This document shows, one piece after another, positions 21,845-30,851 of a DNA stretch of 64,000 nucleotides. Source of the stretch: Planctomycetota bacterium (GTDB lineage Bacteria > Planctomycetota > UBA8108 > SXIK01); the NCBI GenBank assembly GCA_965223265.1, contig OZ244999.1, positions 9,088,001 to 9,152,000 of the forward strand, written 5' to 3'. Every line of letters starts with the position of its first letter. Within the stretch, counting starts at the first letter, position 1. The notes below the pieces were generated by a model. The model made no database searches. It saw nothing but the letters and a program-made list of their open reading frames with translations, and was not told the DNA's origin. Made by a program: the position numbers and the translations under genes.

Positions 21845-23749
21845 TCACTTGAAATCGATGTCGCTGCCGCCTTTCTCGAGCCAAGCGAACTCACCTTCAG
21901 TGATCCGCTGCGCCAGTTTGTAGCCGGCGCGATCCGAGTTCTTCCGCACACCCTTGAAGTTGGCCTCAATGCGCTGTTTGGCGTGCTCGCAAAACAAGGC
22001 CGCGAGGTCGATGACTCCTTCGTTTGCCTTGGCGTCGGCACGGTCGAGCGCGTCGGCACGCGAGCAAGAGGCTGCCATCGCGAACAGCTCGGTGCCGATC
22101 TCGACGTAGCGCGCCAGCAAAGATTGGCGCTTCTCGAGTCCTGCCTGGTGCACGTTCATAGCGTGAAAGAGGCTTCGCGCCAAGCGACGGGTCGTCTTGT
22201 CAATGTACTTGAGATGCGGCGCTAGCGCCCGATGCGCGTGGAAGCCACGACTCAACGGATTCCAGAGGCTCGGGTACCAGTGTGCATAGTGGAGTCCGGC
22301 CTTGAAAAAGCTTGCGATCCTTTTGAGTATTGGAGCGCGTGGATTGAGCAAGTCTCCAGCACGCCGCAAGTGGGGATCCAGTGCCTCGCGTGCGAGGAAA
22401 AGCCGCATGATTTCGCTGGTGCCTTCGAAGATCATATTGATGCGGCAGTCGCGCATGAAGCGCTCGATCGGAACGCCTTTTTCCCCACGAGCGCGCAGCG
22501 ACTGAGCTGTCTCATAGCCGCGGCCGCTACGAATCTGCACAGTTTCGTTGATGATGTCCCAAGAGACTTCGGAGCAGAACATCTTGCACATCGCCGCCTC
22601 GAGACGAATGTCAGCTTGTCCGCGATCGACCAGCGCGGCGGTGTAGAGCGAGATCGCCTCCTGAGCGAAGGTATGTGAGGCGATGAACGCCACCTTCTGG
22701 GCGATGGCATCATGTTTGCCGATGTTCGCGCCCCATTGCTCGCGTTCTTTGGCAAATTCGCGCGCGATGCGCAGGCACACCTTGCTCGCGCCAGTGCACG
22801 CCGCAGGTAGGGTGAGACGTCCGGTGTTCAGAGTCGTCAGCGCGACGCGAAGCCCTTTCCCTTCGGCGAAAATGATGTTCTCGCGTGGCACTTTGACGTT
22901 CGTAAAGCGGATGATGCCATTGTAAAGCGCCTTGAGCCCCATGAAACGGCAGCGCGTGACGATTTCGACGCCTGGCATGTCGCGCTCGACGATGAATGCC
23001 GTGATCTGCTTGCGTTCCTTGCCGCGAACAATCTTCGGTGGCGTCTTTGCCATGACGACGAACAGGCCCGCTTTCAGACCGTTCGTGCACCACAGTTTCT
23101 CCCCGTTGAGGACAAAGTGTTCGCCGTCCTCGGTCGGCTCGGCGTGAGTCGACATGTTCGCCGGATCCGACCCCACTTCGTCCTCGGTCAGTGCAAACGC
23201 GGAGATCTCGCCCTTGGCGAGGCGGGGAAAGAAGCGTTTCTTTTGGTCGTCCGTGCCGAAAAGCTTGAGCGGCTGGGGAACGCCGATACTCTGATGTGCG
23301 GACATCAAGGCACCCGTGTTGCCACAGTAGCTCGCCGCGAACATGGCTCCACGGCTATAGTTGGTCTGCGAAAGTCCGAGGCCGCCGTACTCTTTCGGGA
23401 TCTTGATGCCGAACGCGCCGAGCTTCGCGAGAGCGTCGATTGCCTCCTGCGGAATCTCGCCGGTCGCATCGACCTCGTCGGGGTCAATCTTCTGTTCGAG
23501 AATCTTTCGGAGCTCAGCGACGAATTCGTCACCGAGCTTCGCATCCTCTGCGTCCTGCAGCGGGTAGGGCAGGACGAGATCGTCACGGAATCGGCCCATG
23601 AAGAGCTCTAGGGCGAAACTCGGAAACGCCCACTCTGATTCACGAGCGGCTTCGGTGACCTCGAGCGCCTGACGCTTGCCCTCGGTCATGTTGGAGGTGT
23701 CGATTTTCAGCTCTTCTTCGGCGGGGGCTTGGGTCGTTTCAGGACTCAT
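21845..23749 (-). CDS. Acyl-CoA dehydrogenase (VLCAD-like)
   Basis: FGIKIPKEYGGLG, AFALTEDEVGSD, LNGEKLWCTNG, IERFMRDCRINMIFEGTSEI. ATG 23749 is preceded by GAGGTG. Confidence 0.93.
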   Translation of the reverse strand: MSPETTQAPAEEELKIDTSNMTEGKRQALEVTEAARESEWAFPSFALELFMGRFRDDLVLPYPLQDAEDAKLGDEFVAELRKILEQKIDPDEVDATGEIPQEAIDALAKLGAFGIKIPKEYGGLGLSQTNYSRGAMFAASYCGNTGALMSAHQSIGVPQPLKLFGTDDQKKRFFPRLAKGEISAFALTEDEVGSDPANMSTHAEPTEDGEHFVLNGEKLWCTNGLKAGLFVVMAKTPPKIVRGKERKQITAFIVERDMPGVEIVTRCRFMGLKALYNGIIRFTNVKVPRENIIFAEGKGLRVALTTLNTGRLTLPAACTGASKVCLRIAREFAKEREQWGANIGKHDAIAQKVAFIASHTFAQEAISLYTAALVDRGQADIRLEAAMCKMFCSEVSWDIINETVQIRSGRGYETAQSLRARGEKGVPIERFMRDCRINMIFEGTSEIMRLFLAREALDPHLRRAGDLLNPRAPILKRIASFFKAGLHYAHWYPSLWNPLSRGFHAHRALAPHLKYIDKTTRRLARSLFHAMNVHQAGLEKRQSLLARYVEIGTELFAMAASCSRADALDRADAKANEGVIDLAALFCEHAKQRIEANFKGVRKNSDRAGYKLAQRITEGEFAWLEKGGSDIDFK

Positions 23750-24207
23750 TCTCACCTCTTCCGGTTGGGTGGAGGACCGACGTGTCGATCGGATTGAGGT
23801 CTTGTCTTGGTTGTAGAATAACGCCGCAGACCGCAGATCTCGACGGTCCCAGAGGGCTTTTTGGGAACTCCACCCGTCGTTGACTGTCGAGTACGCGCTT
23901 CCTTCATTTCGAGCGCTGGGGATCTCCGACTTGAGCCCGCTTTTGTGCTGTCCGGTTTCTGGCCCCCGCGCCGGCGAGAAATGACGGCAAGAAACGCTCT
24001 TGACTCCGTGAATCGCACGCCGTTGGCGACGTTCGAGCCGCGTCGGCATCCTCGCACATGGTGAACTACGCGAGCCACCGCGTCTCGAAAGGTCGCTACT
24101 GAAGGGCTCTTCGCCGCTCTTGCGCGTTCCTTCTTGCTGGCGTTGGGGTCAGAAACTGAGGTAGGGGCTTTTCTCTCGTGCCGTACCTCGGTTTAATCTA
24201 AGGTTCC

Positions 24208-24540
24208 ATGATGCGCCAACAGGAAGACGAAGCCGAACGCCCTGATGATCCCGTCTACCTCAACGGTCGACGTGAAGCGATCACCACACTCGTTATCTGG
24301 GCCGTTTTCGGGATCTATACTCTGACCTACTGTTACTTGAACGGGTATGTTTGCGACCCGGCCACGATCGGCACGGTTTTCGGCGTCCCCGACTGGGTCT
24401 TTTGGGGTGTGTTCGTGCCGTGGGTCGCCGCCATTCCCGTCTCGTGTTGGTTCGCTTTCGTCGTCATGAAAGATGATCCGCTCGGCGACGAAGGGGACGA
24501 AAACGCTCACCCAGCTGCAAGCGAGGGTGATGATGTTTGA
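24208..24540 (+). CDS. YhdT/DUF997 family small membrane protein
   Basis: RREA + two TM helices + GVPDWVFWG + MKDDPL. Typical partner upstream of panF. Confidence 0.8.
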   Translation: MMRQQEDEAERPDDPVYLNGRREAITTLVIWAVFGIYTLTYCYLNGYVCDPATIGTVFGVPDWVFWGVFVPWVAAIPVSCWFAFVVMKDDPLGDEGDENAHPAASEGDDV

Positions 24541-26503
24541 GCACGGCGAAGCTGCGATCAGTTTCTTGTGTTACACCCTAGCCGTTTTTGTGCTGGCGAT
24601 TCTGTCGCACCAACTCCTGCAGAAGAAGTCCTTCCTGAAGGAGTATTTTATCGGCAGCCGTGGACTCGGCGTTTGGGCACTGGCGATGAGCTACGCCGCC
24701 ACCAGTGCCAGCGGCGGCAGCTTCACCGGCTTCCCGGCGCTGATCCACACACATGGTTGGGTTTTGGCGCTTTGGATCTCGAGCTACATGGTCGTACCTA
24801 TCTGCGCCATGGGAATGCTCGGCAAACGGATCAATCACATGGCGCGCAAGACGGGGGCGATCACGGTTCCCGATCTGCTGCGCGACCGGTTCCAAAGCCC
24901 CGCGCTCGGAATCCTGTCGAGCCTCTTTCTGGTCGCGTTTCTCGCCTTCAACTTGGTAGCGCAGTTCAAGGCTGGCGCGGTCATCATCGAAAAGCTCGTT
25001 GGCGACGTAGAACTCTACAAAAGAGCCGCGTCAGGTCTCGAGTGGATGCCGGCCGTTTTTTCCTTCGTCGGCGAAAGACCGGAAGGTAGCTACTGCCTGG
25101 CACTCCTTATCTTCGCCGTAGCCGTTGTTGGCTACACAGTGTACGGCGGCTTTCGTGCGGTCGTGTGGACGGACGTGCTCCAAGGCATTGTCATGTTCTT
25201 CGGTGTTCTGATCCTTCTCGGCTGCACGCTGGGGAGGCTCGATAACGGTCTCGAAGGAGTCACCCGTGATCTCGCACGGCATCGTTTCGCGATCGCAAGC
25301 CTCGCGTATGATCGTAGTCAGGGTTCGGGCGAAGAGAACTTCCTGAGAGTGCCCGCGGCGTCGCGTCTCGACGTCCGAGTCCCGAGTGCTGGAGGCAGTG
25401 AACAGCGCTGGGCCCTGCGCCTCGAGAAACCCGCGATGTTCGAGTGGGGCGAAGATCCGGAGTCGGCGAACGTCGTTGAGGTTGACGTCGACGTTCGCAT
25501 CCTGCCGACGTTTACCGATCCGGCAGCGTTTCCCCAATCGCTGCCAGCCGCCGCCAAGATTGTCCTGTTGCCGCCGCGGGAAGGCGCTGCTGAACAGTCA
25601 ACGTTGAGCGCCGTGCGCGTGACGGCGATCGTTTCCAAGCCAGAACACTCGTTCGTTTCGGCTCCTGGCTTCGGCGGCGAGCTAGGTTTCCTGCCGTTTT
25701 CAATCGCCATCTCGTTTTTCGTCATGTGGGCGATCTCGGGCACGGGTCAGCCGACGACGATGGTGCGATTGATGGCGTTTTCGAACACCCAAGTCCTGCG
25801 GCGTGCGGTCTTCAGCGTCTCGATCTACTACACGCTCATCTATATTCCTCTAGTGATCATCTTTGTCTGCTCGCGATACATCCTCGAACCGCTCGAGCGC
25901 CCCGACGAGGCCATGGCCGCGATGGTGCTCGAGGTTGTTCCCGGCTGGCTTGGCGGCGTGATCATGGCTGCTCCGTTCGCGGCCATCATGTCAACGGTCG
26001 ACAGCTTCCTGCTCGCGATCGCTTCTGGTCTGGTGCGCGACATCTATCAGCGGAGCATCAATCCGCACGCTTCGCCGCAGACGCTGCGCCGCCTGAGCTA
26101 TTTGACGACGCTGTTCATCGGCGTGGTTGTCTTCTTCGGGGCGCTGAATCCGCCGCGTTTTCTTCAGTACATCATCATCACGACGAGTTCCGTGCTCAGT
26201 TCGACATTTCTTTTCCCGATCTTTTTCGGGCTCTATTGGAAGCGGATGAATCGGGTTGGGGCGCTGTGCGGCATGATCATTGGTGGTGGCGTCTGCTTCG
26301 CGTTTTTCGCTCTGAGCTGGGCGGGATACAGCCCTCAGAATCTCGGCGGCTTCGCCCCCGTCGTCTGGGGTTTCGTTGCCTCAGTCGTTAGCTGCGTCGT
26401 CGGCAGTTTGATTTCAGCGCCGCCGCCGCGTTCACTCGTTAACTTCTACTTCGCTGCTCCAGCAAGTCGCTCGTCGTCGCAACCGACGAACGGCGACGCG
26501 TGA
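24530..26503 (+). CDS. panF: Sodium:solute symporter, PanF (pantothenate)-like
   Basis: FLKEYFIGSRGLG, SYAATSASGGSFTGFP, YGGFRAVVWTDVLQG, AAIMSTVDS. Adjacent to DUF997. Confidence 0.8.
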   Translation: MMFEHGEAAISFLCYTLAVFVLAILSHQLLQKKSFLKEYFIGSRGLGVWALAMSYAATSASGGSFTGFPALIHTHGWVLALWISSYMVVPICAMGMLGKRINHMARKTGAITVPDLLRDRFQSPALGILSSLFLVAFLAFNLVAQFKAGAVIIEKLVGDVELYKRAASGLEWMPAVFSFVGERPEGSYCLALLIFAVAVVGYTVYGGFRAVVWTDVLQGIVMFFGVLILLGCTLGRLDNGLEGVTRDLARHRFAIASLAYDRSQGSGEENFLRVPAASRLDVRVPSAGGSEQRWALRLEKPAMFEWGEDPESANVVEVDVDVRILPTFTDPAAFPQSLPAAAKIVLLPPREGAAEQSTLSAVRVTAIVSKPEHSFVSAPGFGGELGFLPFSIAISFFVMWAISGTGQPTTMVRLMAFSNTQVLRRAVFSVSIYYTLIYIPLVIIFVCSRYILEPLERPDEAMAAMVLEVVPGWLGGVIMAAPFAAIMSTVDSFLLAIASGLVRDIYQRSINPHASPQTLRRLSYLTTLFIGVVVFFGALNPPRFLQYIIITTSSVLSSTFLFPIFFGLYWKRMNRVGALCGMIIGGGVCFAFFALSWAGYSPQNLGGFAPVVWGFVASVVSCVVGSLISAPPPRSLVNFYFAAPASRSSSQPTNGDA

Positions 26504-26650
26504 CGCGCCGGGTGTTGTGAGGGTGTCGGCGTAGCGACGAGGCGCACCGACCGACGCGATCCATGGCCTGAGTGCTGCGCTTGAAGCGTGACGGGCAGGT
26601 GACACTCTGGGTAATACCGCGCGATGATCGCCGCCAGCGATCGATGATGG

Positions 26651-27244
26651 TCACTCGAGATCGAGGAACTCACGCTTGAGTGCGTTCCAGCGCTTCTGGG
26701 ATTTCTTGCCCCACTTCTCGAACTTACGGTCGATCTTTGCGACCTTACGTTCCTGCCACAACCGACCAGAGCTTTTGCCATAGAACTTGTCGGCGACGCA
26801 AATGATCTTCTCCTCGAGCGAGACCGGACACAGGTCGCGAGCAGGTAATGGTAGACCCTTGTTCTCGATCTCCTCGGCGGTCAAGCCGCTGCCGGTATGG
26901 CGTTCGCAGACGAGCGCGTGCTTTGGCAGCCCTTCCTTCTCGAGGGTCTTTCGTCCAAGAACTCCGTGCATGAGATATGGCTCGGAGCCATGACAGCCGA
27001 TTTCGGGCGCATCGCACTCACGGATGCCAATGTCGTGCAGCAGCGCAGCCTCACGGATGAATTCAAGGTCGAGCTCGGCGTCGGGTTCGACCTTACTGTA
27101 CCAGTGCGCGATGGAGAGTGCTTTCTGAGCCACCAACACGGAGTGGACAACGATGATTTCGTGCGCTTCGGAATCGACCGGATAGTACTTTGCAAGAATC
27201 GCCAATGCATCGATCGACAACGTGACTTTGCCTCTCTTTCCCAT
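26651..27244 (-). CDS. HD/HDIG-domain phosphohydrolase
   Basis: HS..V, ALLHDIG, HG..G, CERHTG, EEKIICVADKF. Confidence 0.88.
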   Translation of the reverse strand: MGKRGKVTLSIDALAILAKYYPVDSEAHEIIVVHSVLVAQKALSIAHWYSKVEPDAELDLEFIREAALLHDIGIRECDAPEIGCHGSEPYLMHGVLGRKTLEKEGLPKHALVCERHTGSGLTAEEIENKGLPLPARDLCPVSLEEKIICVADKFYGKSSGRLWQERKVAKIDRKFEKWGKKSQKRWNALKREFLDLE

Positions 27245-27296
27245 GTTTCGTTCCCTTCACTTTCCGGTGGTCTATCTCGTCACGCCCGGCGCCTCC

Positions 27297-29201
27297 TCAA
27301 GCGCTCTCGGTCGGGAGCTCCGAATCGAACGGGTCGGATAGCGAGATCCGCCGCAGCGGCGTCAGCTCGACCTCATTCCAGTTGACGCGAAGTGATTGCG
27401 AATCGCTTCGCGTCTTAATGTAGTGAGCCCGCACTCTCGCCCGAGTGTCTGGCGGTGGTGCACTCGTCGCGAGTGCAACCGCGGCCGGTGAAATGAGAGA
27501 GCGGATGTAGTCCTCCCGTTCGAGCTGTCTTTGGTATCCGGACCCACCCAGTTCGTGGAAGCGTAGGTCGATCTTCCAAGTGTTGAAGTAGAGTCTGCGG
27601 AATTTTGCAAAGTCTCCGGCCTGCAGATTCCTCGACCGGATGAGGCGCCTCAGTTTTCGGCGCCGGGTGAATGGTGATCGATGGACAAGATCACCGAGAT
27701 CCCTCGCTCTCGCAGCCGCTTCGACGCCTGCCGACTGCAATAGTTTGCCCCAACTGAAGAAGTCCTTCCAGTTCGTTTCCGACAGCACTGCTTGGTCGAG
27801 AACCGACTTCTTCGCCACCCAATCGAGTGAGTCAGCAAGGCTTTGCTGTTGATTCTCGAGTCTCTCGAGCGTCTCCTCCCACAGATCTATGATCTCGCGG
27901 TGTCGGATGCGGCCCTGCGGTCGACCATCGAAAAAAGTCTTGACGCGTCTTAGGTAGGAACGCTGGAGATTCATTGCTGTTGACGTCTGACCGCTCCGCA
28001 GACGAACCTCTTTCCACGGTCCACCGCGCGCGATTTCACGGAACGCCATGACGGGATTCTTCAAGCGAAGCTCAGCAAACGTCTCTCCTGCTTCGATCAT
28101 CTCCAGGAGGAGAGCAGTAACGCCGACTTTCAGTAGATTCGGGATGTCGGAGAGGTTGGAATCGCCGATCGTGATGGAGAGTTTCTTTTGCTCATCGAAG
28201 AGCGCCGCCGGCGAGTAGAGGAACCCTTTCAGGTCGAACATGGTCTTCGACCGCCCGAACATGATGATCTTCGCTACGCTTGACGTCAGCCGGCTGCGTT
28301 GCGACAGCTCAAAGGTTTCACTCTGAAAATCGAGACGTCCGGCTCCCGTATAGATCTGTCGACTGACGAGAAATGACGTCAAGTCCTTGACGAAAGGCCC
28401 AAAAGCGAGGCGGCTCAAGAGTAACGAATAGAGCTGCACTGGCGGATAGACGATGACCAGGAAGAAGAGCACAGGAATGGCACGAATCGACTCAGCAGTT
28501 CGCGTGCGACCGTCGCGAACCCAAAGATAAATGTGTTCTGCGGCGCGCCGCAGCGGCGGTAGTAGGCGCCCGATCACCAGCGTGGCGGCGCCGAATAGGA
28601 GAACGCAAAGCAGCGTGAAAAACGTCGGAAAGAGAAGCAAAAGGAAGATCGGGGCCGCGAGAATGAGGTACCGCAAGGCCGACCGCGGTGCTCGATGAGA
28701 GACGAGGTAGTTTTCGTGGCAGCCGAATCCGGTCCCAAAGCGATCGACGTTGTTCTTACCGAAGAACAGACGCCCCGGCCAACCGGCTTTCGTCAGCGCT
28801 TCGGCGGACTTGCGGCTGACGTCATCGAGGATTGTGTCGAACGCTTTGGAGTAGCAAACGACGTCCCACGGTGTTCGACACTCGGGTGTTGCTACTTCGA
28901 AGATCGGTGTGTCTTCCTGGCGACGCAGAAAGATTTCCAGGTGCACCTGGCCGCCGTTCTCGAGGAAATACCCGCCCTTCAGACCACTTGCAGGTGCCGA
29001 TTTGCGTCCCTCCAAAAGGCTGCTGTAGAGAACCTTCTCGAGCAGCTCGAAGGGCGCTTGCCTCTGCGGCGTCGCATTCGCGTCTAAATCGTCCGGGACC
29101 TCCGAGCCGACCGCGGGTTCGTAGATGACCGCGACCTCCGTCTCCAACCCGAAAATCCCCCTGCGTTCGTCGCTGGCGGGAAGGGGTTCGCGAGGGGCCA
29201 T
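27297..29201 (-). CDS. PafA/Dop (proteasome accessory factor PafA2) family Pup-ligase-like protein with membrane-spanning insertion
   Basis: IFGLETE, FLENGG, EVATPECRTP, KNNVD..G.GFGCHENYLV, FLVSRQIYTGAG, ELSQR, IGDSNLS..LLKVGVTALLLEMIE, LDWVAKK, KIDLRFHEL, PPPDTRAR.R. Confidence 0.88.
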   Translation of the reverse strand: MAPREPLPASDERRGIFGLETEVAVIYEPAVGSEVPDDLDANATPQRQAPFELLEKVLYSSLLEGRKSAPASGLKGGYFLENGGQVHLEIFLRRQEDTPIFEVATPECRTPWDVVCYSKAFDTILDDVSRKSAEALTKAGWPGRLFFGKNNVDRFGTGFGCHENYLVSHRAPRSALRYLILAAPIFLLLLFPTFFTLLCVLLFGAATLVIGRLLPPLRRAAEHIYLWVRDGRTRTAESIRAIPVLFFLVIVYPPVQLYSLLLSRLAFGPFVKDLTSFLVSRQIYTGAGRLDFQSETFELSQRSRLTSSVAKIIMFGRSKTMFDLKGFLYSPAALFDEQKKLSITIGDSNLSDIPNLLKVGVTALLLEMIEAGETFAELRLKNPVMAFREIARGGPWKEVRLRSGQTSTAMNLQRSYLRRVKTFFDGRPQGRIRHREIIDLWEETLERLENQQQSLADSLDWVAKKSVLDQAVLSETNWKDFFSWGKLLQSAGVEAAARARDLGDLVHRSPFTRRRKLRRLIRSRNLQAGDFAKFRRLYFNTWKIDLRFHELGGSGYQRQLEREDYIRSLISPAAVALATSAPPPDTRARVRAHYIKTRSDSQSLRVNWNEVELTPLRRISLSDPFDSELPTESA

Positions 29202-29424
29202 TGGGTGCGCGCGTTCGAAGATCGTCCTGTTAGGTTCAGGAGCTCAGTCAGGAAGGCAGTCGCCGGGCGTCGTGCCTTCGAGAGGAAGTCGGAGGCCGCG
29301 ACAGGTCCCGGTGCTCACGCGCCATGGGCACACGGGTAACCGCGAGCGATTCGCCGCGCCAGTCACGGCGTTCTCTCTTCACATGGCGACCCGGCTCCTC
29401 TGAGGAGCGCGAACTTGGCCTCAA

Positions 29425-29613
29425 TCACTCAGCGCCGCGTCCGACGTCATAAGCGTAGACGTATGCAGCGGAGTGTTGGTCTGCGTCGGCGAGCATGGCG
29501 CGAATCAGATCACGTCGGGTGCGAACGCCACGGTCGATGACCGAAGCGGGAATTCCGACACTTTCCGCGGACTCTGTGTCCGCAGAACGAACATCCTCGA
29601 CTCTGCCTGCCAT
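29425..29613 (-). CDS. Small Pup/UBact-like protein (62 aa, C-terminus GRGAE)
   Basis: Internal ATG 29613 of ORF 29425..29748 gives MAGRVEDVRSADTESAESVGIPASVIDRGVRTRRDLIRAMLADADQHSAAYVYAYDVGRGAE. Size and C-terminus are Pup-like. Co-oriented upstream of the PafA-family gene. Confidence 0.6.
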   Translation of the reverse strand: MAGRVEDVRSADTESAESVGIPASVIDRGVRTRRDLIRAMLADADQHSAAYVYAYDVGRGAE

Positions 29614-29981
29614 AGAATCGCTCGGCGAAACGTTCAATTTCACAAAAAACTCCGAAACGGTTAAGATCCTGCCACAGGTGATTATCTCCAGCAGACCACT
29701 CACGCACAAGGTTTTTCGCGGCCGCACAGAAGGCTGCACGCGCCACATCGACTGAAAAACGCGTCGTCACACCCGAATCGTTCCGCTGCGAACACGCGAG
29801 AATCCGCGAGATTCTCCGGTGTGGCCACTGAGCACGAGCCGTGGTCGGGAGATGGAGACCCCAAGTTGTCGAGTTCGAGAACGCCTAGTAAATCACGAAC
29901 ATTCAGGTGGTCAAGAGCCCAGTAGGTCGATTCTTGGCTTTTGAGGGTTGAGGGCTTTCCTGCGGGAGACGGAGGATCCGG

Positions 29982-30851
29982 ATGCGAGAACGTTGTAGTG
30001 CCGTTGCCCGCGAGCTCCAGGACACCATCACCGAGGAGCTCGAGCGCCTCGATGGGAGCCGTTTTGAGGAGGACCTGTGGGATCGAAGCGGCGGCGGCGG
30101 CGGACGTACCCGCGTGCTGACGGGCGGCGGACTCTTCGAGCGCGCAGGCGTCAATTACTCGTCGGTGCACGGCGAGCTTTCGGACGAGTTCGCCCCCCAA
30201 CTGGCCGGCTCCGGGAAGGAGTTCTTCGCCACCGGGATCTCTCTCGTCCTCCATCCGTCGAACCCTCAAGTCCCCACGGTGCATGCGAACTTTCGATACA
30301 TCGAGAGAGGCGACGCATGGTGGTTTGGGGGCGGCGCTGATCTCACGCCGTACGTCTTTTACGAGGAGGACCCTTGCCATTTCCACTCGACGTGGAAACA
30401 GGTCTGCGACCGCCACGACCCCGAACATTACCCGAGATTCAAGAAGTGGTGCGACGAGTACTTCTTTTTGCCACATCGCGGTGAGTCGCGCGGCGTCGGT
30501 GGAATTTTTTTCGACAACCTGACTGGAGACCGCGATCGGCTGTTCGAATTCTGGAGCGATGCCGGGAGCGCGTTCTTGGACTCTTACGTGCCCATCGTCG
30601 AGCGCCGGCGGCATCTGGAACACAATGAGTCGCAGCGGCGATATCAACTGCTCCGACGTGGCCGCTACGTCGAGTTTAATCTCATGTACGACCGTGGGAC
30701 GATTTTCGGCCTCAAAACGCGAGGTCGGATCGAATCGATCCTAATGTCTCTGCCGCCTCTCGTCGCGTGGGAGTACGACGTGAAGTGGCCACCGGCTAGC
30801 GCTGAGGCGGAGCTTGAAGCCGTGCTGCGTGAGCCCCGCGACTGGGTGTAG
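29982..30851 (+). CDS. hemF: Oxygen-dependent coproporphyrinogen III oxidase
   Basis: FERAGVNYS.V.G, GISLVLHPSNP.VPTVHANFRY, WWFGGGADLTP, RRGRYVEFNL.YDRGT.FGL. Confidence 0.96.
   Translation: MRERCSAVARELQDTITEELERLDGSRFEEDLWDRSGGGGGRTRVLTGGGLFERAGVNYSSVHGELSDEFAPQLAGSGKEFFATGISLVLHPSNPQVPTVHANFRYIERGDAWWFGGGADLTPYVFYEEDPCHFHSTWKQVCDRHDPEHYPRFKKWCDEYFFLPHRGESRGVGGIFFDNLTGDRDRLFEFWSDAGSAFLDSYVPIVERRRHLEHNESQRRYQLLRRGRYVEFNLMYDRGTIFGLKTRGRIESILMSLPPLVAWEYDVKWPPASAEAELEAVLREPRDWV

Follow-up and report, generated by a model that had tools for sequence, protein, structure and literature searches.

A conserved pair of a Glu-terminated tag and a predicted membrane-anchored PafA/Dop-family ligase in Planctomycetota

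The window, a stretch of 64,000 nucleotides (nt) from the genome of a Planctomycetota bacterium (GCA_965223265.1, contig OZ244999.1, positions 9,088,001 to 9,152,000), contains on its minus strand a small open reading frame (ORF) of 62 amino acids (aa), located 223 nt upstream of a co-oriented gene for a PafA/Dop homologue. An original prediction, made from the letters alone, had proposed the two as a Pup-like modifier (hereafter the tag) and its membrane-anchored ligase; the coordinates and the sequence of the small ORF were as given there. The features of the locus are as follows, in window positions.

29425..29613, minus strand: Pup-like tag gene, 62 aa and stop (ATG at 29613, stop codon 29427-29425)
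29428..29436, minus strand: codons for the terminal G-A-E of the tag, Glu62 being the presumed conjugated residue
29202..29424, minus strand: spacer between tag and ligase, 223 nt, with no recognised element
27297..29201, minus strand: membrane-type Pup-ligase homologue, 634 aa (Pfam PF03136)
29136..29150, minus strand: GhExE motif for binding of adenosine triphosphate (ATP), residues G18 L19 E20 T21 E22 of the ligase
28935..28937, minus strand: Glu89 of the ligase, aligned with the catalytic Asp of PafA/Dop
28710..28718, minus strand: H162-E163-N164 of the ligase, the [HQ]x[NH] motif of core strand 4, directly followed by the insert
28386..28706, minus strand: hydrophobic insert of the ligase, residues about 166-272, a predicted membrane anchor

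The tag ORF was translated to a 62-aa protein with the C-terminus ...AAYVYAYDVGRGAE, the last residues being G60-A61-E62, and it contains no lysine. The frame is open further back to an ATG at 29748, a start that would result in a 107-aa form. An identical 62-aa protein is already present in the public protein collection, where it is nameless (P0010). The same collection lists the ligase as a product of 616 aa (P0013), 18 residues shorter than the ATG-started ORF. Initiation at codon 19 (TTG) would delete the invariant G18 of the GhExE motif, and the ATG at 29201 is therefore the more likely start. Close relatives of the ligase are named 'proteasome accessory factor PafA2 family protein' in public databases. 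When 26500-30100 was scanned for promoters and terminators, the tag and the spacer gave nothing above shuffled sequences on the gene strand.

The ligase was searched against 401 Planctomycetota genomes, the host genome among them, and with a cut-off of E <= 1e-10 a homologue was found in 39 genomes. Conservation was then assessed in a sample of 30 full or nearly full loci of the membrane type (L003-L032). A conserved small ORF beside homologous ligases was one of the checks put forward with the original prediction, and such an ORF, co-oriented and with a tag-like C-terminus, was present shortly upstream of the ligase in 26 of the 30 loci. Eighteen of these adjacent tags end in GGE, six in GAE (L003, L004, L005, L006, L009, L011), one in HGE (L020) and one in DGE (L014). 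The frame, the stop position and the C-terminal motif of the tag were conserved over more than 15 planctomycete families. As a background control both strands of all 30 loci were read from stop to stop, and every ORF that reached 30 aa was collected (n=1851). Endings of the G[GA]E type were found in 24 of them, in each case the co-oriented tag ORF directly upstream of its ligase, and in none of the other 1827.

Among the loci with no adjacent tag, L019 comprises merely 110 nt of upstream sequence, and the search returned no tag match in the genomes of L012 and L016, each 66% complete. For the ligase of L007, the tag of its genome (G374) was found on another contig as an ORF of 45 aa ending in PKGAE (E 9.8e-7):

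L040:1498-1635, minus strand, contig 24: unlinked tag of G374

Adjacency is thus usual but not obligatory. An additional close relative (L048, ligase 44% identical) also has a tag ending in GAE. When started at ATG the homologous tags have lengths of 45-64 aa, and the 61- and 64-aa tags of same-family loci support the 62-aa form here. The spacer between tag and ligase, measured to the start of the ligase match, was 19-381 nt in the homologues and mostly below 223 nt. Judged by this conservation, the small ORF is a real gene.

Within the tag family the N-terminal half is variable and poorly conserved, and the C-terminal half (residues 33-59 here) is the predicted ligase-binding part. The C-terminal half is laid out as a helix-prone segment, often ending in ...D-[AS]..., an aromatic-Val/Leu motif and a tail [VI]-P-G-G-[GA]-E. 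The terminal Glu (E62 here) was invariant in all 27 tags and G60 was conserved to at least 90%; an ending in Gln was found in 0/27 membrane-type tags. With an invariant terminal Glu a deamidation step is unnecessary, as originally predicted for this copy. The penultimate residue is Gly in 20 of the 26 adjacent tags (the 18 GGE tags, HGE and DGE) and Ala in six adjacent tags, in the unlinked G374 tag and in the tag of L048; in this copy it is Ala61. In the ligase tree the GAE tags fall into three separate subclades (the host's family, f92, and f61 with f65), interspersed with GGE tags. Together with the GAE tag of L048 this distribution indicates that the penultimate Gly is replaceable by Ala and that the exchange has occurred repeatedly.

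The ligase matched the Pfam family Pup_ligase PF03136 with E 6.8e-79 (266.3 bits, cut-off 25). An AlphaFold2 model, calculated from a 27-sequence alignment, had a predicted local distance difference test (pLDDT) score of 89 and a predicted template modelling (pTM) score of 0.90. Outside the insert the model was superposed by Foldseek on Dop (4b0r), PafA (4bjr) and 7oxy, with target-normalised template modelling scores of 0.73-0.83 and a best E of 7.5e-25 against the Dop/PafA structures; further fold matches were 1r8g and 1tt4. In a phmmer search against PDB sequences, residues 102-175 and 266-469 aligned to consecutive parts of Dop 4b0r, which makes residues 176-265 a clean insertion. The stretch from Y165 to R281 was 106-134 aa long, with Kyte-Doolittle peaks of 1.7-3.3, in 30/30 membrane-type enzymes, compared to 21-29 aa and no hydropathy peak in six canonical, insert-less planctomycete paralogues. 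A wider set of relatives was obtained with an 8-row ligase alignment as query (80 rows, mostly canonical actinobacterial PafA/Dop), and among the matches listed the gap from HEN to R..G[AST]G was 21-32 aa in 77 insert-less loci.

In the model the insert is formed by two long helices (173-213 and 234-265) that are joined by an Arg-rich helix (215-230). Located within a single domain, the insert must cross the membrane an even number of times, two or four. The insert begins right after H162-E-N-Y165 on core strand 4, the position given in the available text of PMC2588565. The claim of a membrane-anchored ligase was thus borne out as far as predictions go, by the hydrophobic insert in the model and in all 30 homologues.

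G18, E20 and E22 of the GhExE motif, which is named in the available text of PMC2588565 and of PMC7947786, were invariant in 30/30 membrane-type enzymes, and further core residues were also invariant. H162 of the strand-4 motif, defined as [HQ]x[NH] in PMC2588565 as far as its text was available, was retained in 28/30. The column of the catalytic Asp contained Glu in 30/30 membrane-type enzymes (H-[YFL]-E; Glu89 here) and Asp in 12/12 canonical PafA/Dop enzymes (Y-[VLIM]-D; six planctomycete, five actinobacterial and one myxococcal), and the loop after the Glu89 position was 7-8 residues longer than that of PafA/Dop. As the flanks of the actinobacterial sequences match Table 1 of PMC7947786 (Dop V-D-H-A, PafA L-D-V-G-S), the column is well anchored. 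In a quick maximum-likelihood tree the membrane-type enzymes formed one clade apart from the canonical paralogues, with a Shimodaira-Hasegawa-like approximate likelihood ratio test (SH-aLRT) support of 98. This agrees with Hecht et al. (PMC7947786), where single-copy planctomycete proteins served as outgroup to PafA and Dop.

Co-folding of the peptide with the ligase had also been put forward as a check. It was performed with ATP and with alignments of both the ligase and the tag, in three runs and three controls, and resulted in a median interface score (ipSAE) of 0.88, compared to 0.00 for the best of the three controls. When the method was calibrated, 58 of 80 solved complexes and 2 of 110 mismatched pairs attained this mark. 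The runs shared at least 65% of the contacts and the pLDDT of the partner was at least 59. In the predicted complex tag residues 33-59 touched the C-terminal helical domain of the ligase (466-471, 493-497, 536-565) and also the active-site sheet region (24-31, 97-100, 153-159). We concluded that the adjacency in 26/30 loci, the one unlinked tag and the co-fold support a cognate tag-ligase pair, as had been proposed.

The host genome is a single contig of 9.18 Mb and 91.65% complete. PF03136 matched one gene in the whole genome, the ligase. A search of the genome with the tag profile recovered the tag ORF at E 7.4e-11. The next match, at E 0.04, was rejected as a second tag copy, being without the terminal motif and not tag-like. 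Over the whole 9.18 Mb there was no match to the proteasome family PF00227, to the proteasomal-ATPase (Mpa-type) OB domain PF16450 or to Pfam Pup PF05639. The earlier statement that the window holds no proteasome, Mpa ATPase or second Dop gene was thus correct and could be extended to the genome.

A membrane-anchored tag-ligase system was already predicted from genomes in 2008. The available text of Iyer, Burroughs and Aravind (Biol Direct 3:45, PMC2588565) describes Pup and Pup ligase in Rhodopirellula and Plesiocystis, unlinked to the proteasome, and planctomycete and Plesiocystis Pup ligases with an insert of four transmembrane (TM) segments after core strand 4. In Rhodopirellula the Pup gene adjoins the ligase and was unannotated, and pupylation of membrane proteins was proposed for the membrane-type ligases. 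The label 'candidate new system' was hence not sustained, since both the arrangement and the tagging of membrane proteins had been described. As far as the text of that study shows, the present analysis adds the GAE variant, the invariant Glu with the longer loop, the lack of a curated tag model, the finding that no other neighbour is conserved, and the phylum-wide count.

Based on the gene pair, its conservation and the models, we consider it likely that the locus encodes a two-gene, proteasome-independent, membrane-localised conjugation system that resembles pupylation and acts via the terminal Glu of the tag. The tag would be a largely disordered 62-aa protein, made with the Glu already terminal so that no deamidase would be required. 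According to the co-fold, its C-terminal half would form helices that dock on the ligase's C-terminal helical domain, with the tail fed toward the beta-sheet active site. For the ligase, a probable PafA/Dop-family carboxylate-amine ligase, the insert behind core strand 4 would provide attachment to the cytoplasmic side of the membrane. In analogy to PafA we infer that the enzyme may phosphorylate the gamma-carboxylate of the terminal Glu with ATP, and that the activated Glu would then be passed to the lysine epsilon-amine of nearby, presumably membrane-associated, proteins. As no proteasome or Mpa-type ATPase was found, such a mark would more likely be regulatory than a proteasomal degron.

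Knowledge of pupylation is almost confined to Actinobacteria, in which the pathway feeds the proteasome. The membrane-type branch constitutes a natural experiment, as a single enzyme is combined with a tag that already ends in Glu, a predicted membrane location and the absence of a proteasome, and the module is widespread in Planctomycetota, the full locus being obtained from 30 of the 401 sampled genomes. Its targets would reveal the role of a Pup-like mark that is no degron, and the exchange of the catalytic Asp for an invariant Glu poses a direct question on the PafA/Dop mechanism. As the tag family is without a curated model, tags are missed or left nameless in annotation.

A number of observations weigh against the proposed conjugation system. 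The homology of the tag to Pup is plausible from the sequences and only suggestive, as the tags match neither Pfam nor NCBIfam models: with Pfam Pup PF05639 0/26 tags matched at E up to 10, and with the NCBIfam models 0/27. The tags matched no other Pfam family either (0/26). In the positive control 16/16 genuine Pups from actinobacterial and myxococcal loci matched Pfam Pup. An hhalign comparison of the tags with these 16 Pups gave an alignment that spans the C-terminal 29 columns from end to end and keeps the aromatic-Val motif in register, the membrane-type tail being one residue longer after the motif, at a probability of only 20.7% and E 0.0011. Searched against solved structures, the tag sequence matched no Pup chain, and the best match was an unrelated designed protein (E 0.02).

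The enzyme too is only partly like its relatives. It scored below the PafA equivalog cut-off (NCBIfam TIGR03686, 216.3 vs 551.3 bits) and below that for Dop (NCBIfam TIGR03688, 186.9 vs 492.3 bits). A classification by the residues in Table 1 of PMC7947786 was tried and gave no assignment, as the alpha-loop was not reliably alignable and the rest was mixed, Ala104 being PafA-like and Pro106 Dop-like. With the Asp-to-Glu change and the longer loop, activity and a PafA-like type of reaction are not guaranteed. In the co-fold the final three residues of the tag lie outside the confident contacts, and solved Pup-PafA and Pup-Dop complexes exist (4bjr, 7oxy), so that resemblance to these may account for part of the score. 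In the literature searched, no biochemical, proteomic or RNA work on any membrane-type member was found.

Three other explanations were considered for the pair. That the small ORF is an unexpressed chance frame in GC-rich DNA, with the ligase using another substrate, we regard as very unlikely, to the point of being negligible. This copy is indeed without a Shine-Dalgarno sequence, which had been the caveat of the original prediction and counts against a functional tag, it lies 223 nt from the ligase, and curated family models fail to recognise it. Frame, stop and C-terminal motif are, however, conserved in 26/30 loci and more than 15 families against a background of 0/1827; GGAGG or AGGAG is located just upstream of 11 of 23 homologous tag starts; the tag profile singles out the ORF in the host genome, the next match not being tag-like; and the predicted complex is specific compared to the controls. 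It is unlikely, in our judgement, that the enzyme acts as a Dop-like hydrolase or transferase, or is catalytically dead, instead of being a ligase, the tag then being attached by something else or merely bound. Such an enzyme would fit the slightly higher rank of Dop over PafA in phmmer and Foldseek, the Dop-like Pro106, the partial alignment of planctomycete proteins with the Dop-loop (PMC7947786) and the replaced catalytic Asp. It would, however, be the sole family member in its genome, where no writer would be left to supply a remover with substrate; a terminal Glu is already present in 27/27 tags, so that deamidation is unneeded; and the invariance of Glu89 and of the ATP-binding residues in 30/30 enzymes argues for a selected, active site. 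Single-copy planctomycete proteins were moreover placed outside the PafA and Dop clades, both in PMC7947786 and in the tree with SH-aLRT 98.

The acceptor may also be something else than a protein. Analogies for this are Atg8-PE as a lipid-anchored tag and LysW as a carrier for a small-molecule amine. We find it quite unlikely that the membrane-embedded enzyme joins the terminal Glu of the tag to a non-protein amine, whether an amino-lipid head group or a small-molecule amine carried by the tag. The insert would tie the catalytic domain to the bilayer beside the active-site sheet, all 30 members deviate from PafA/Dop in the catalytic acid and the loop next to it, no protein-recognition partner is conserved nearby, and 1r8g and 1tt4 are among the fold matches. 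The wider superfamily also ligates small amines, for example in gamma-glutamyl-cysteine synthetases and glutamine synthetase, according to the available text of PMC2588565. Small-amine ligation is a trait of the older superfamily members. Nothing positive was found for a lipid or small-molecule acceptor, though, the pair has no conserved biosynthetic genes next to it, and protein lysines are the substrates of the nearest relatives that have been characterised. Decidedly improbable is the version in which the membrane-type enzymes are a distinct, Glu-based branch that conjugates the tag to a membrane-resident non-lysine amine, e.g. an amino-lipid head group; if it were true, amino-lipid conjugation would represent an Atg8-like lipidated protein tag in bacteria. 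Conjugation of the tag to lysines of presumably membrane-associated proteins remains the reading that we prefer.

The system of Rhodopirellula and Plesiocystis, as the available text of PMC2588565 presents it, is like the one here in having a TM insert C-terminal to core strand 4, a small and mostly unannotated adjacent tag gene, no proteasome genes, a planctomycete host (Rhodopirellula) and a proposed role on membrane proteins. Pup is defined there as a protein of 50-90 aa with a G-[EQ] end, encoded beside the ligase. The size, the adjacency and the terminal Glu of the tag fit this definition, but the host tag ends in A-E and the penultimate Gly of the G[EQ] signature is absent. Four TM segments are counted in that text, whereas the shorter insert here is modelled as two long helices with an Arg-rich connector. 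A linked membrane-protein gene is reported in it, whereas no neighbour was conserved here over 30 loci within about 1.5 kb. The Asp-to-Glu change of the membrane-type enzymes is not mentioned in the available part of the text.

With the actinobacterial Pup-PafA-Dop-Mpa-proteasome system (4b0t, 4bjr, 4b0r, 7oxy) the membrane-type module shares the enzyme family, the fold and the GhExE and HxN motifs. The tags share with Pup a length of about 60 aa, the terminal Glu, a C-terminal half that binds the enzyme (predicted here by co-fold) and the Gly two residues before the terminal Glu (G60 here), and most of them end in GGE like Pup. The actinobacterial system contains PafA and Dop, whereas the host has one enzyme with a predicted membrane-anchor insert of about 100 aa. 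The actinobacterial enzymes have a catalytic Asp, the membrane-type enzymes Glu and a loop 7-8 residues longer. Proteasome and Mpa belong to the actinobacterial system, whereas neither a proteasome nor an Mpa-type OB domain was found in the host genome. As the membrane-type tags never end in Gln (27 tags), a deamidation cycle as in the actinobacterial Pup system would not be expected.

Canonical loci were found in seven other Planctomycetota genomes (L033-L039). They contain two PafA/Dop-like paralogues each, of the same enzyme family and phylum as the membrane-type enzymes, but these have no membrane insert, carry the catalytic Asp and belong to a separate clade. In three of the seven loci the enzymes are accompanied by a small ORF that ends in GGQ or GGE (L036:7803-8006, minus strand; L035:7112-7456; L038:550-792). 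The membrane-type tags were not confidently alignable to these three ORFs by hhalign (probability 3.5%). The three ORFs themselves gave no Pfam Pup match at E <= 1, which shows that this model is narrow.

The UBact consensus C-terminus was given in the original prediction as R-[ST]-G-[EQ]. UBact shares with the module here that a small tag is encoded beside PafA/Dop homologues in Gram-negative phyla. An ending of the UBact type, [ST]-G-[EQ], was found in 0/27 membrane-type tags. The original prediction that the tag fits neither the Pup nor the UBact consensus holds for this copy, which ends in GAE and has no UBact ending, but not for the family with respect to Pup, 18 of the 26 adjacent tags ending in GGE as Pup does. 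A UBact-like ending, RQRTGE, was seen only once, in an ORF beside an insert-less ligase homologue of Latescibacterota (L072:641-829). In Chloroflexi a small ORF beside an insert-less ligase homologue ends in RQIGGE (L113:3562-3963).

In several loci of the high-GC family f26 (L018, L031, L022, L023) the tag frame is open over about 99-105 aa (e.g. L031:2898-3194, minus strand), and these frames contain an Ala/Leu-rich hydrophobic stretch (Kyte-Doolittle peak 1.6-2.3) before the ...TPGGGE tail. From the sequences, the long frames could be a membrane-anchored variant of the tag or merely open frames in GC-rich DNA. The ligase of L030 (G176, a single contig of 9.5 Mb) has the shortest insert among the 30, with 106 aa. 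The 45-aa tag of the same locus matches a hypothetical protein of Candidatus Uabimicrobium amorphum (P0006), so the module extends to deep-branching, unusual planctomycetes.

Downstream of the ligase the window contains a further co-oriented gene, which the original prediction had noted as following the ligase:

26651..27244, minus strand: HD/HDIG-domain gene, with its start 52 nt past the ligase stop (Pfam, NCBIfam)

The product matched Pfam HD with E 1.9e-08 and TIGR00277 HDIG with E 1.8e-08. The gene was considered as a third component and rejected, as tblastn placed it after the ligase in only one of 29 other loci, the same-family L004; in this comparison the L005 locus was cut off downstream of the ligase. 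The HD gene is, by this distribution, local synteny only and not a conserved component of the system. All-against-all clustering of the ORFs in flanks of about 1.5 kb from the 30 loci revealed within-family synteny only, and a divergent coproporphyrinogen oxidase gene was conserved solely within the host's family. With no other neighbour conserved across the clade, tag and ligase constitute the minimal module. The nearest membrane gene to the ligase is a convergent SSF transporter at 24473-26503.

Further along in the window, an acyl-CoA dehydrogenase ORF is located on the minus strand at 21845-24049 (734 aa). Its first Pfam ACAD domain begins only at residue 175, and the first listed start thus probably overextends the gene.

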